Source: Alphaproteobacteria bacterium (GTDB taxonomy: Bacteria > Pseudomonadota > Alphaproteobacteria > Rickettsiales > UBA8987). Taken from it: 64,000 nucleotides of DNA. The position numbers and the translations under genes are program-made. The stretch covers positions 3,477-67,476 of the forward strand of contig JANPLD010000118.1 in the NCBI GenBank assembly GCA_031426355.1, in the 5' to 3' direction. Under the pieces are notes generated by a model. The model was given only the letters and a program-made list of their open reading frames with translations. It was not told the origin of the DNA and did not search any database. Shown one piece after another: positions 53,130-57,106 of the stretch. The stretch's first letter is position 1. Each line of letters opens with the position of its first letter.

Positions 53130-54133
53130 TATTTTGGAACACCTTTTGAAGTTGAATATTCAAAGTGAAGTGGTTTACCAAAAACTTTTTCGTATGCTGT
53201 ATGGCAGGCCATCGCCACTTCCGCGAATCCACATGAGATCAGCTTTAATTTACCTTTATAATTACAGATATCACCAACGGCATATATGCCTTCAATATTA
53301 GTTTGCATATTATGCGCTTCAACAGAGATATGATTATGATTAAGGTTCAAACCCCAATCTGCAATTGGCCCCAGTTCCATAGCCAGACCAAAGAAACATA
53401 GAAGGTTATCAGCTTCAAGCGCGCGTTTGTTTTTATCAAGATCCTCAACAATAACATTTTTAAGAATGCCACCCTGCCCTTCTAAACCAGAAAGCTGGAA
53501 TGGAATAACAAACTCAAGCTTGCCTTTTTTCTCCCACTCCTTCATCTGCGAAACTGATTCAGGAGCAGCGCGGAATTTATCGCGCCTGTGGATAACGTAA
53601 ACTTTCTCCGCAACTGACGCGAGAATATTTGCCCAGTCTACCGCAGAATCACCACCGCCAGCTATCACAACTTTTTTACCGGCATAATCATTCTTAGTGC
53701 GAACCATGTAAGCAACACCGCCTGTTACTTCATACTCACTAAGCCCGTCAATTGGTGGCTTATTAGGCCCGAAAGCTCCACATCCAGCAGCTATGATTAT
53801 AGCTTTTGCCTGAATGGTAGTATTTTTTGAAGTAGTTATTGTGAATTCAGAATCAGCCTTCTCAACTTTAACTACCTGCTGCCCTAAATGATAGACAGGA
53901 GAAAATGGTGATGCCTGTTTTTCAAGATTCTTAATTAAATCTTCCGCGACTATCTCAGGAAATGCCGGGATATCGTAAATAGGTTTCTCAGGATAAAGCG
54001 CGTTACACTGCCCGCCAACAAAATCAAGCGCATCAACCATATGGCATTTCATGCCGAGCATCCCCGCCTGAAACACAGTGAATAAACCCGCCGGGCCAGC
54101 GCCTATTATGCAAATATCTGTACGATTAATCAT
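53129..54133 (-). CDS. thioredoxin-reductase-like ferredoxin-NADP(+) reductase
   Basis: 334 aa; IIGAGPAGL, VGGQCNALYPEKPIYDIPAFP, GGGDSAVDWA, AVGDI pattern of YumC-type FNR. Confidence 0.8.
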   Translation of the reverse strand: MINRTDICIIGAGPAGLFTVFQAGMLGMKCHMVDALDFVGGQCNALYPEKPIYDIPAFPEIVAEDLIKNLEKQASPFSPVYHLGQQVVKVEKADSEFTITTSKNTTIQAKAIIIAAGCGAFGPNKPPIDGLSEYEVTGGVAYMVRTKNDYAGKKVVIAGGGDSAVDWANILASVAEKVYVIHRRDKFRAAPESVSQMKEWEKKGKLEFVIPFQLSGLEGQGGILKNVIVEDLDKNKRALEADNLLCFFGLAMELGPIADWGLNLNHNHISVEAHNMQTNIEGIYAVGDICNYKGKLKLISCGFAEVAMACHTAYEKVFGKPLHFEYSTSKGVPK

Positions 54134-54157
54134 TCCTTAACTATTCAAATGTATAAT
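54126..54157 (+). promoter_or_regulatory. CtrA-type box plus -10: TTAA-tcattcc-TTAAC-tattcaaatg-TATAAT
   Basis: Perfect TTAA-N7-TTAAC, N10, TATAAT ending 26 nt before ATG 54184; spacer overlaps the fpr start codon on the other strand. Confidence 0.6.
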
Positions 54158-54183
54158 GAAGTTTTAACCAAAATATTTAATAT

Positions 54184-54690
54184 ATGAAAGAAATTTTGCA
54201 ATTATTAGAAAATTATTATGATGGGCTAATTGATTATGTAAATACCAAAGAGAATTATACTCCTAAAGCATATATGCAATTTGAAATTGATTCCGCCAAT
54301 AAACTTGTTGAAGACCTTGGAAAACTAGATAAAAATAATTCTGTAGATCAAAAATATCTTTGCAAGATCATAAATTATTACAATCAGGTTATAATTCCAT
54401 CAAAACAAGATAATCTTGATAATTTTGACTTTTTCGTAAAGCCGGGAAACCCCCATAAGAAACGAGTTGAAACTGAATTTGAGAAACAACCCTTATTGCA
54501 AATAATAGAATCTTTTAAAAATAAAATGACAGATGAAGAGATACTAAAAGATTCCATAGATTCTACAAACACACGTTTAGATAATAACTTGGAAAAAAAC
54601 TGCCCGGAAGAGAAATTAAAAACAACTTTGAGTTACCCGGTTTATAATCCCGATATTTTGAAAAATAAAAAATCTTTTGAGATATGCTAA
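54184..54690 (+). CDS. hypothetical protein (orphan)
   Basis: 168-aa ORF behind a perfect box promoter; no motif. Confidence 0.45.
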   Translation: MKEILQLLENYYDGLIDYVNTKENYTPKAYMQFEIDSANKLVEDLGKLDKNNSVDQKYLCKIINYYNQVIIPSKQDNLDNFDFFVKPGNPHKKRVETEFEKQPLLQIIESFKNKMTDEEILKDSIDSTNTRLDNNLEKNCPEEKLKTTLSYPVYNPDILKNKKSFEIC

Positions 54691-54738
54691 TATAAGTAAC
54701 TTTCAGTAGTTAAAATTTTTCTTTAAATTTAGCGATTA

Positions 54739-54770
54739 TTAACCATTTATTAAACTTTACTTGCTATAAT
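54739..54770 (+). promoter_or_regulatory. CtrA-type box plus -10: TTAA-ccattta-TTAAA-ctttacttgc-TATAAT
   Basis: Distal half-site TTAACCAT, proximal TTAAA, N10, TATAAT 36 nt before ATG 54807 (SD gaggt). Confidence 0.55.
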
Positions 54771-54806
54771 TGCCTCATAACAAAACATAAATTAATTGAG
54801 GTTAAG

Positions 54807-55475
54807 ATGTTTATAGAGCAAGGGTTACAAAGGCAGATGCAGCAAGCTCCGGTTCCAGAACTTCATGAATTACAAAAGATAATAAATAACTTTTCAGATG
54901 ATTTATTAAATCTAAAGAAAAATTCTGAACAACAGAATTATGACCTTAACTTTTATTATGAAGAATTAACCAGATCTTATGAAAACTTTCAGCGCAATAT
55001 TGGAAATTACCAAGTTAAGCCAGGCGATTTAAAAGGAGAATACCTTAAAGAAATATCTAAAAATAGAATTTCTGATTTTAATTCCATTAAAGAAAATTTC
55101 TGGCGTCAATTTAATCCTAATGATCCAGCTAATATACCAAGTGAAGAACAAAAACAGGATTTTAGAAATTTTCCTACAGATTACAATCATCTTCGTCGTG
55201 ATTTAAAAAACAGCTTAATAAATGAACATTCTTTAGAAAGATTAAGAGAATTGAGCAAAGAGTTTGAAGGTCTATTTCCCGCAGGACAACAATCAGAATT
55301 AAAAAATTCTAAAGAAACATCAAAAGATCATGAACAGTGCTTACCTCAAAATAACAGCATAACTTTAATTGAAAGTGAGGGAGAAGTAATGAAATCATTG
55401 GGTATAGAATTAGGAAATCTTGATCTTCCTAAAAATAATGTTCAAAGAAATCTTGTTGAAAGACAAATGAGTTAG
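54807..55475 (+). CDS. hypothetical protein (orphan)
   Basis: 222-aa ORF; N-terminus GLQRQMQQAPVPE weakly resembles GTQQQMQGLEERVPKE of ORF 44467. Confidence 0.5.
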   Translation: MFIEQGLQRQMQQAPVPELHELQKIINNFSDDLLNLKKNSEQQNYDLNFYYEELTRSYENFQRNIGNYQVKPGDLKGEYLKEISKNRISDFNSIKENFWRQFNPNDPANIPSEEQKQDFRNFPTDYNHLRRDLKNSLINEHSLERLRELSKEFEGLFPAGQQSELKNSKETSKDHEQCLPQNNSITLIESEGEVMKSLGIELGNLDLPKNNVQRNLVERQMS

Positions 55476-55486
55476 TAACTAATTTC

Positions 55487-56503
55487 TTAACCCCTTGAAT
55501 AAAATTTCTTAGGGTTTTTATTCTGATGCATACCTGCTATATCAAGCGTTGCTATCTCAGGTTCGTTATTGAATTTTATCGGAGTTACTGTCTGCGGACA
55601 TGTGTTCATTTCAGAAGTTATATGATATCCTAAATATGGTACTTTCGTTTTGCCAGAAGAATCTACATAATCCTTATCGGTTTTCCTATTATTCATATCA
55701 TTGCTATAATCGGTATATTCTAATGCTCCATTATCTTTATTAGCCTCAACTTTGACTGTTAAATCAATTGTTCTATTTCCAATTGTTTTAAATACATTCT
55801 CAGCTATTTCCCATTTAGTATCCCTGAAGGCATTTTCTACTTTAATCTTTTGTGGAACTTCTTCATATTGCGGATTGTTAGGGTCATTATTATCGCACAA
55901 TGGATAATATAGTAGTAAAGTAGAACCCCTCTTGGAAGTTTTAAATTTTGCCTTCTCATCTGTTACCTTATCAGCTGCATTATCAACCATGGTTATACTA
56001 ACAACTTTGGATATATTACCTTGTTTATCAACCTCTGTGTAACTTTCTTTAAAAACCTGCACATCTATATTCTGCCAGCCTTCTAATTTATTTTGAATTA
56101 TTAAATTCCCTTCATTCTTTAAAGTGAATTCAGCAGAAATTCCTAAGCTTTGACCATCGCCATCTATTATTCTTCCATCATCACCATCATTATAGGCAGT
56201 AATTAGAATATTTGTTTCTCCCGTATTAGGATTAACACGAAACCCAGCCATTATTTGCGAAACAAAAGGGCAAGAACAATTATTATAACCAAGAAATATA
56301 GGTTTTGTAGCCGAATTGGCAAAACTCCTTTGCTTTTGAGTAAGGCCATGTCCACGTATTTTAAGGTTTTCATAACCTGACACTAAGCCATATGTAATAG
56401 TATCAGCATTTGCATCATTATATATCTCAACATATAATGGCTCACCCTTATCAGGTGGTAAAAAATCGCCATCAGCTAAAATCTTTTTAAAATCTTCAGA
56501 CAT
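55487..56503 (-). CDS. hypothetical beta-rich protein (orphan)
   Basis: 338-aa ORF with own box promoter; no motif. Confidence 0.5.
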   Translation of the reverse strand: MSEDFKKILADGDFLPPDKGEPLYVEIYNDANADTITYGLVSGYENLKIRGHGLTQKQRSFANSATKPIFLGYNNCSCPFVSQIMAGFRVNPNTGETNILITAYNDGDDGRIIDGDGQSLGISAEFTLKNEGNLIIQNKLEGWQNIDVQVFKESYTEVDKQGNISKVVSITMVDNAADKVTDEKAKFKTSKRGSTLLLYYPLCDNNDPNNPQYEEVPQKIKVENAFRDTKWEIAENVFKTIGNRTIDLTVKVEANKDNGALEYTDYSNDMNNRKTDKDYVDSSGKTKVPYLGYHITSEMNTCPQTVTPIKFNNEPEIATLDIAGMHQNKNPKKFYSRG

Positions 56504-56527
56504 ATTTATTCCCCTTGGTCTTCAGGA

Positions 56528-56559
56528 AATATAACAGATTTGTATTAAAAAAAGGTTAA
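56528..56559 (-). promoter_or_regulatory. CtrA-type box plus -10: TTAA-ccttttt-TTAAT-acaaatctgt-TATATT
   Basis: Same 32-nt geometry; -10 ends 24 nt before ATG 56503. Confidence 0.55.
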
Positions 56560-56599
56560 GAAGCAGCATTATCAGGATAATTAAGAATTATATTCAACC

Positions 56600-57106
56600 T
56601 TAAATTGATTTTCCAGCTTTATTTATTTCTGTTCTGACAGAATCACAGACTGACTGTAATTTTACCAGTTTTTCTACAGCTTCTCCCGAATTGAATAACC
56701 TAGGTTGTTTCTCAGTCACAAAAGAAAAACCATGATCTTTATCTATAGCCCCTTTAACTTGTACCGCAGCCATTTTAAAATCTGCAACAAATTCCATAAC
56801 TGAAGTTTTTAAATTTTTTTCAAAATCCCTCATATCTTTAGAAGCGCCTAATTTCTGAAGAGCAAAAACTGTGTAATCATCTACATGATCTAATTTTTCC
56901 AGACTAAAATCATCCTTTGTAAAAAGAATACCAGTTAAAGAAATCAAATTTGAATCTTTTGCCGCTTTAACAAGTTTATTTTTAAATTTCCTTGCCTCAT
57001 CCTTAACTACATAAGATATTTGATGCTCCTTACCTTCTGTAAGAAAGGCTCTTTCTATCATAGGATGGAAGCTTCTTAAACTCTTAGGTATATCAATATT
57101 AACCAT
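56600..57106 (-). CDS. hypothetical protein (orphan) 8 nt downstream of lpdA
   Basis: 168-aa ORF; no motif; no room for its own promoter. Confidence 0.45.
   Translation of the reverse strand: MVNIDIPKSLRSFHPMIERAFLTEGKEHQISYVVKDEARKFKNKLVKAAKDSNLISLTGILFTKDDFSLEKLDHVDDYTVFALQKLGASKDMRDFEKNLKTSVMEFVADFKMAAVQVKGAIDKDHGFSFVTEKQPRLFNSGEAVEKLVKLQSVCDSVRTEINKAGKSI

Follow-up and report, generated by a model that had tools for sequence, protein, structure and literature searches.

Lineage-restricted genes with putative CtrA-type promoters at a probable gene-turnover hotspot of an environmental Rickettsiales bacterium

Genes of the lpdA-fpr island

The DNA considered here, the window, is a stretch of 64,000 nucleotides (nt) on contig JANPLD010000118.1 of an uncultured Rickettsiales bacterium, known from a metagenome-assembled genome of freshwater sediment (2.25 Mb, 136 contigs, 38.6% guanine plus cytosine (GC)). 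Between the fpr and lpdA genes of this window lies an island of four open reading frames (ORFs), called A, B, C, and D, with a GC content of 27-33%, to be compared with 42-45% in the two flanking genes. A, B, and C are each preceded by a promoter-like element of fixed geometry, the box (TTAA-N7-TTAAN-N10-TANNNT), and B carries in addition a short N-terminal motif, the tag, which recurs in other proteins of the same genome. The present analysis favors, with moderate confidence, a turnover hotspot of four real, fast-evolving, lineage-restricted genes, of which A-C would be under CtrA-type promoters. The genes and their borders are as follows.

54184..54690, plus strand: ORF A, 168 residues, hydrophilic, rich in Lys, Asn, Leu, and Glu (ORF list, coding statistics)
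54807..55475, plus strand: ORF B, 222 residues, acidic, rich in Asn, Glu, Leu, and Gln, bearing the shared N-terminal tag (ORF list)
55476..55486, no strand: gap of 11 nt between the convergent stops of B and C (sequence read)
55487..56503, minus strand: ORF C, 338 residues, member of a tiny beta-rich family (ORF list, HMMER scan)
56600..57106, minus strand: ORF D, 168 residues, basic (isoelectric point 8.9), soluble, without a box (ORF list)
53129..54133, minus strand: fpr, thioredoxin-reductase-like ferredoxin-NADP reductase, lower border of the island (Pfam Pyr_redox_2, E 1e-35)
57115..58524, minus strand: lpdA, dihydrolipoyl dehydrogenase, upper border of the island (Pfam Pyr_redox_2 and Pyr_redox_dim)

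The ORF positions, the 11-nt gap between the convergent B and C, and the 8-nt gap between the lpdA stop and D had been given in a preliminary description of the locus, and they agree exactly with the ORF list. The 8-nt gap contains a GGGG element resembling a Shine-Dalgarno sequence, and D is probably co-transcribed with lpdA; for A, no clear Shine-Dalgarno element is found. Just downstream of the gap between B and C, inside the 3′ end of C, there is a weak hairpin and, after it, a U-run; the hairpin was rejected as a terminator because its folding is no better than that of shuffled sequences (z = -0.5 and -1.1).

All four ORFs are taken here as real protein genes. Every one of the four exceeds 160 codons, the longest stretch without a stop in 1000 shuffles of the island; when the frames are scored with codon preferences learned from 805 long genes of this genome, the ORF's own frame comes first in each case, and the GC content of the first codon position exceeds that of the second and third positions throughout.

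The earlier statement that A-D have no recognizable domain is borne out by searches of Pfam, NCBIfam, PHROGs, PADLOC, and the PDB sequences, none of which returned a significant match. Those PDB matches that do appear are due to chance (e.g., KIF1A at E 0.015 for the low-complexity B), as is the only PADLOC match, at 14 bits. The proteins are all hydrophilic, with neither a membrane segment nor a Sec signal, and the net charges of their last 25 residues (+3 for A, 0 for B, +1 for C, and +2 for D) are unspecific as a type IV signal. The genome-wide check for paralogues that had been proposed was made with tblastn and gave none for A-D in the own genome; a 29-residue match of D on contig C45 was set aside because it is a fragment of only 37 codons.

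Neither A nor D has a relative in the other contigs of the genome or in 40 related genomes, the negative for A being limited in that the large protein databases were not searched for its remote homologues. When 5.8 billion proteins were searched by word index, C and D each matched only themselves, and an alignment of B retrieved only B and its orthologue on L027, a contig of a close relative; among approximately 15 billion proteins, all four are singleton clusters. The designation as orphans is thus appropriate for A and D, which have no relative in the searched collections, but not for B and C, for which syntenic relatives exist.

Turnover of the slot in related genomes

L027 is a 10-kb contig on which the genes around the slot are 94% (lpdA), 92% (folD), 89% (fpr), and 86% (a SET-domain protein) identical to those of the window. 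Reading from lpdA, its slot contains a box, a 344-residue paralogue of C (27% identity), the orthologue of C (42-47%), the orthologue of B, and then fpr. The B orthologue, of 183 residues and in the opposite orientation, is 27% identical overall, with the N-terminus, a YNHLR patch, and the C-terminus conserved, and it has a box of its own, so that boxes precede both the C pair and B. A and D are absent from L027, where no DNA trace of them is left. The four genes do not, therefore, form a conserved set: L027 keeps only C and a very diverged B, and adds a paralogue of C where D stands in the window.

In G010, a genome from another genus of the same family, lpdA and fpr are adjacent, 7-29 nt apart, and the gene order of the window matches that of this genome (lpdA-fpr-GIY-YIG-like-folD) apart from the island between lpdA and fpr. 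In G007, from another genus, the lpdA-fpr junction holds three unrelated ORFs, the one on the fpr side lying behind a box. The fpr gene itself is 84-89% identical to its orthologues in relatives. From the comparison of L027, G010, and G007 it therefore appears that the slot is old and its promoters are kept, while the genes within it diverge and are replaced much more rapidly than those on either side. As judged from these sequences, the stretch is probably a gene-turnover hotspot within an otherwise conserved lpdA-fpr-folD block.

It has to be considered whether A and/or D might be non-functional, that is, very young proto-genes or decaying remnants that stay open by chance. Such a view would account for the lack of any homologue of A or D in the searched collections, for their absence from the close relative L027, and for the missing Shine-Dalgarno element of A. 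It is nevertheless unlikely, because both ORFs are longer than any frame in the 1000 shuffles and have genome-typical codon usage and periodicity, A has a high-scoring box at the canonical distance of 26 nt, and D has its GGGG element and is tightly coupled to lpdA.

Some further observations concern the surroundings of the slot. The contiguity of 55599-60500, and of this part alone, is confirmed by Logan contigs. The SET-domain protein by folD (window 51139-51729, corresponding to L027:7626-8216) is, unlike the island genes, a stable member of the block. Across lpdA, at window 58633-60154, there are two more lineage-specific ORFs, E (145 residues, plus strand) and F (345 residues, minus strand), neither with a box and neither with a meaningful match in Pfam, NCBIfam, PHROGs, or PADLOC. 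L027 lacks both and has the homologue of 60223-60816 immediately before lpdA; strain-specific insertions therefore flank lpdA on both sides. At the G007 junction (L011; G007:C176, 1042-3259), the ORFs have 280, 241, and 144 residues, and the box, TTAATCCTTTGTTAACCATCTTATGGCATAAT, lies beside fpr and is aimed at the 144-residue ORF, whose true start, because of the position of the box, is probably its second or third Met.

The box promoters

The presence of three boxes in the island, as originally described, is confirmed by exact matches to the pattern, far above chance. Scores are from a position weight matrix (PWM).

54126..54157, plus strand: box of A, TTAATCATTCCTTAACTATTCAAATGTATAAT (exact match; PWM 25.7; -10 hexamer ending 26 nt before the ATG)
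54739..54770, plus strand: box of B, TTAACCATTTATTAAACTTTACTTGCTATAAT, with an extended -10 (TGC-TATAAT) (exact match; PWM 29.9, the best of the island)
56528..56559, minus strand: box of C, TTAACCTTTTTTTAATACAAATCTGTTATATT, with an extended -10 (TGT-TATATT) (exact match; PWM 23.5)

The -10 hexamer ends 36 nt before the ATG in the box of B and 24 nt before it in that of C, and the L027 promoter orthologous to that of B also has a box. The window as a whole contains 9 boxes, compared to 0.38 expected, a number that was reached in 0/100 shuffles. Scanning of the island with the PWM gave no fourth box, and none ahead of D.

Genome-wide, 92 boxes are found at the N7/N10 spacing, whereas each of 48 other spacing combinations gives 1-27 (about 12). 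Their consensus is TTAACnnTTTnTTAACnnTTnTnTGnTATnAT, with half-sites arranged as TTAAC-N6-TTAAC and the ATG mostly 21-31 nt after the -10. Relative to the predicted transcription start, the half-sites lie at approximately -38 and -27, so that a normal -35 hexamer is absent; as in the boxes of B and C, TG frequently extends the -10. The full TTAA-N7-TTAA site occurs 219 times in the genome, with 70% of the occurrences falling within the 22% of the genome that lies outside long ORFs.

CtrA as the probable reader of the box

All three island boxes contain, at the -35 position, the full CtrA consensus site, TTAA-N7-TTAA(C), and a CtrA equivalog is among the encoded proteins (NF045991, scoring 361.7 bits where the curated cut-off is 350). 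The ctrA gene lies on contig C71 of the same genome (24701-25618), with two full sites in the 209-nt upstream region, where approximately 0.07 would be expected from the intergenic density, and is divergently paired with a 637-residue gene that bears both the tag and the box. The two sites and the divergent gene suggest that CtrA is autoregulated and that a tag gene is directly coupled to ctrA. Since the ctrA of Rickettsia complements a ctrA deletion in Caulobacter, the class as a whole has a conserved binding site (PMC2877005). It is probable that the regulator of the box is CtrA.

An alternative is that the box is read by another OmpR-family regulator, PmrA-like, instead of CtrA. Several points speak for it and against CtrA. 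There are nine Trans_reg_C matches in the genome, eight of which are full-length OmpR-family regulators, CtrA included. Direct repeats with an 11-bp spacing are typical of the OmpR family as a whole. No full CtrA site occurs on the contig of flhA, which thus gives no sign of the classical connection of CtrA with flagellar genes, and binding of CtrA at the boxes is predicted from the consensus only. Even so, we consider another regulator quite unlikely, because the half-sites and their spacing are exactly those of the published CtrA consensus, the two full sites upstream of ctrA are as expected for autoregulation of the encoded equivalog, and the architecture is spread over the Rickettsiales, as CtrA is.

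It is worth mentioning here that the box of A overlaps the start codon of fpr (54131-54133; CtrA site 54126-54141), such that CtrA bound at this box could hinder the transcription of fpr. The best sigma-70-like promoter match for fpr is found at 54242-54215 (minus strand), inside the coding region of A; with this promoter, A and fpr would have overlapping divergent transcripts.

A proposed genome-wide regulon

The box heads at least 65 ORFs that are scattered over the genome (about 65-90 genes). The box-driven ORFs have an average GC content of 33.1%, compared to 39.3% for all ORFs (p = 7e-15), and among approximately 20 box-driven proteins tested none has a solid Pfam domain. Thus, with the same box on many scattered genes of low GC content and without domains, A, B, and C are predicted to belong to a large regulon whose proteins are atypical and lineage-specific. 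In most of the Rickettsiales relatives, too, the box is strongly over-represented compared to a reversed-pattern control (e.g., 121 vs 13, 110 vs 7, and 53 vs 0).

This bears on the proposal that the island is a private functional module, in which A-D form a complex or a small pathway and the three boxes serve to co-express this set specifically. The convergent layout is indeed tight, and box triples within 2.5 kb occur at 3 places in the genome (the island and two others), compared to 0.39 expected, which indicates some clustering. The self-contained co-regulated module of the preliminary description is nonetheless very unlikely, since the same promoter stands before the other scattered genes, D has no box, the L027 slot holds C, B, and a C paralogue and lacks A and D, and G007 has three unrelated genes at the junction. 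What stands of the proposed co-regulation is that it is plausible for A, B, and C, whose boxes are genuine; it does not extend to D, which is probably transcribed along with lpdA.

Several giant ORFs are also headed by a box, with 6114, 6613, 6480, 2469, 1849, and 1345 residues (contigs C18, C22, C129, C67, C128, and C20, respectively). Those of 1345, 2469, and 6613 residues share an N-terminus of another type than the tag, MF(D/E)xLxxL(F/Y)(E/N)(A/K).

A shared N-terminal tag

The likeness between the N-termini of B and ORF 44467 (…GLQRQMQQAP… and …GTQQQMQGLE…), for which the evidence had initially been called thin, is real and belongs to a larger set. The two tag genes of the window are the following.

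54810..54845, plus strand: tag in B, codons 2-13, FIEQGLQRQMQQ (shared with ORF 44467-45246 and nine other proteins of the own genome)
44398..45246, plus strand: second tag gene of the window, with N-terminus MLNEFLPAIGTQQQMQ..., box at 44398-44429 and ORF at 44467-45246 (motif, box)

The motif reads (hydrophobic)-x-E-x-G-(hydrophobic)-Q-Q/R-Q-M-Q-x(2-6)-P. A strict version, built from B and ORF 44467 only, is found at five ORF starts in the genome, 5/5 of them behind a box. A relaxed version occurs within the first 26 residues of 11 ORFs, 10/11 behind a strict box, a count that is partly circular because this version was shaped on box-driven ORFs; free of the circularity are the result with the strict motif and the internal background, in which the relaxed motif appears at 1 of 617,932 internal positions of 2244 ORFs. 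The 5′ leaders of the tag genes differ and their codons vary synonymously, so the tag is conserved at the peptide level; for the same reason, a mobile nucleotide cassette of tag and promoter was rejected. Past residue 30, the 11 proteins include only one related pair, and none of them has a Pfam domain. In the DNA comparison with L027, no part of B is better conserved than the tag stretch. Proteins that begin with the tag are also encoded on L027 and in the genomes of three genera of this family, a strict box preceding the gene in two cases; matches beyond the family are only internal or due to chance, and no description of the motif was found in the literature.

The putative roles of the tag may include export, chaperone binding, modification, and timed proteolysis. 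It resembles type III N-terminal signals in being a short N-terminal peptide on unrelated proteins without Sec features, in a genome that encodes FlhA. Type III export signals lack sequence conservation, however, whereas the tag is a sharp motif, and it could equally be a degradation, chaperone-binding, or modification tag. The export machinery encoded comprises one FlhA and two VirB4 (PF03135). A speculative proposal, to which we assign a rather low probability, is that the tag is an undescribed sorting or export signal that marks a subset of the CtrA-regulon proteins in one family of environmental flagellated Rickettsiales for one machine (the flagellar type III gate or a type IV system), or else a mark for a common modification or timed proteolysis; the lpdA-fpr islet would then be one birthplace where new cargo genes are born, tagged, and discarded.

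Three minor observations concern tag-like sequences elsewhere. In G001 and G002, genomes of the same genus, tag genes of 405 and 393 residues (L139 and L143) follow a conserved palindrome, tctccctct...ggggagaggga, with no box in the 110 nt ahead of them. Nor do these two genomes show an excess of boxes over the control, and the wiring of the regulon may vary within the genus. A 45-codon ORF at C23:17884-17898 (L124) has a perfect box and the tag (MKNINEFFYEQGMQQQMQSPE...) and probably represents a tag gene that is truncated or decaying. In G035, from another family of the same order, the nucleotide pattern for QQQMQ occurs in 40 identical copies inside a repeated 478-codon ORF, most likely the transposase of a multi-copy insertion sequence and unrelated to the tag.

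Proposed mechanism and comparison with known systems

On the favored view of a turnover hotspot with CtrA-type promoters, phosphorylated CtrA (CtrA~P) would bind the box at -35 and recruit RNA polymerase, as happens in Caulobacter at promoters whose only site is at -35. In this way, A, B, and C would be activated along with the other mostly low-GC, domain-less genes of the regulon, and D would be read from the lpdA transcript without a box of its own. The tag on B and on some ten unrelated proteins of the regulon would fit a common handling step, i.e., export, sorting, or timed turnover. It is tentatively suggested, as a possibility that we regard as doubtful, that the island proteins have a role beyond core metabolism, either as exported or as surface/host-interaction proteins; such a role would explain their rapid divergence and turnover.

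A number of points weigh against this picture. Among the public sequencing runs, one DNA run and no RNA run contain sequence of the locus. As A and D have no homologues anywhere searched, purifying selection on them cannot be demonstrated. No more than three genera of the family have lpdA and fpr side by side, and the ancestral character of this adjacency is something we infer. The structural model of C is weak (pLDDT 50.7, the predicted local distance difference test) and matches nothing. Among A-D, the tag is found on B alone and is uninformative for A, C, and D. Finally, in the two genomes of the same genus the box is not above the reversed-pattern control (42 vs 35 and 46 vs 45).

A horizontally acquired mobile, prophage, defense, or toxin-antitoxin islet inserted in one piece would agree with the GC contrast to the flanks and with the absence from most relatives, but is highly improbable, since there is no integrase, transposase, tRNA, or flanking direct repeat (the repeats that appear are chance AT-rich matches) and no phage, plasmid, or defense match, including in PHROGs and PADLOC, C has no relatives in viral contigs or plasmids, low GC content is general for box-driven genes, whose promoters are native to the lineage, and C and B have diverged in place with the host, being syntenic in L027.

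The promoters of Caulobacter and other alphaproteobacteria that depend on CtrA are similar to the box in having identical half-sites, identical spacing, and a -35 position that replaces the normal hexamer. The Caulobacter CtrA regulon is also large, with approximately 100 genes (PMC11264516), and sites upstream of ctrA itself are found here as well. The differences are that nearly all targets found in the present genome are low in GC, lineage-specific, and without domains, instead of being flagellar, pilus, division, or methylase genes, and that the geometry is unusually rigid, with exactly N10 to the -10 and usually TG; the regulation of the present promoters by CtrA is, moreover, a prediction. 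In Ehrlichia chaffeensis, which belongs to the same order, CtrA is a global developmental switch, tied to the resistant or infectious stage and not to the cell cycle alone (PMC4251998, PMC9791040). The targets described there are, in contrast to those found here, conserved stress and envelope genes. In the papers searched, we found neither an orphan-protein regulon nor an N-terminal tag described.

A further parallel is PmrA of Legionella pneumophila and Coxiella burnetii, an OmpR-family regulator that recognizes a tandem repeat of 11-bp period at a fixed distance from the -10, in place of the -35 element, and controls dozens of Dot/Icm effector genes. These are lineage-specific, fast-evolving genes scattered over the genome, as is seen here for the box. 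The regulator and the repeat (cTTAATatT-N2-cTTAATatT) are different, however, and the PmrA-controlled effectors use C-terminal type IV signals, whereas translocation is only putative for the proteins of the present regulon. The promoter type of CtrA is thus known, and what is new is that environmental Rickettsiales apply it so rigidly to dozens of orphan genes, together with the tag and the small family of C.

The early-branching environmental Rickettsiales provide the best view of the origin of obligate intracellular life and of effector repertoires. At the present locus, a conserved housekeeping block appears to be repeatedly invaded by new genes, which would be wired to the CtrA developmental switch by a rigid promoter cassette, at least one class of them with a sharp tag. 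Should the tag prove to be a signal for export or sorting, it would provide a sequence rule for listing candidate cargo or effectors across a family of uncultured bacteria for which none are known, and the box would be a second, independent rule for listing candidates. If it is no such signal, there is still a documented case of very fast turnover, in which A, D, E, and F differ within 7 kb at 94% lpdA identity.

The family of protein C

The locus also adds the tiny beta-rich family to which C belongs. Exhaustive scanning of 1.84 billion representative proteins with HMMER, using C as the query, gave two true homologues, P0003, which is the C orthologue of L027 (47% identity by HMMER, 42% by BLASTP, E 1e-67), and P0004 (29% identity, E 5e-13); two further candidates, P0005 and P0006, are long repeat proteins and were rejected. 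Profile-guided scans of genomes, metagenome and viral contigs, and plasmids gave no relatives of C beyond the proteins already found.

The beta-rich character attributed to C in the preliminary description is supported by the DSSP assignment of the AlphaFold model, which consists almost entirely of strands, at low to moderate confidence. With 4 sequences, the model has a pLDDT of 50.7 and a predicted template modeling score (pTM) of 0.59, with an almost all-beta core at residues 54-224 (pLDDT 50-83); from the single sequence, the pLDDT is 32. The Foldseek check that had been called for was made on C against the PDB and BFVD and gave no match, the best E being 0.08-0.14 with a TM-score of at most 0.2.

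C, P0003, P0004, and L027:2255-3289 align over their full length. Members of the family have approximately 310-360 residues and share the conserved elements NNCxC, with its Cys pair, DPNxGxT, GWxxID, and VDNAADK. They often occur in tandem pairs, with a C''-C' pair present in L027 and again on a third contig, L028, and C stands single in the window.

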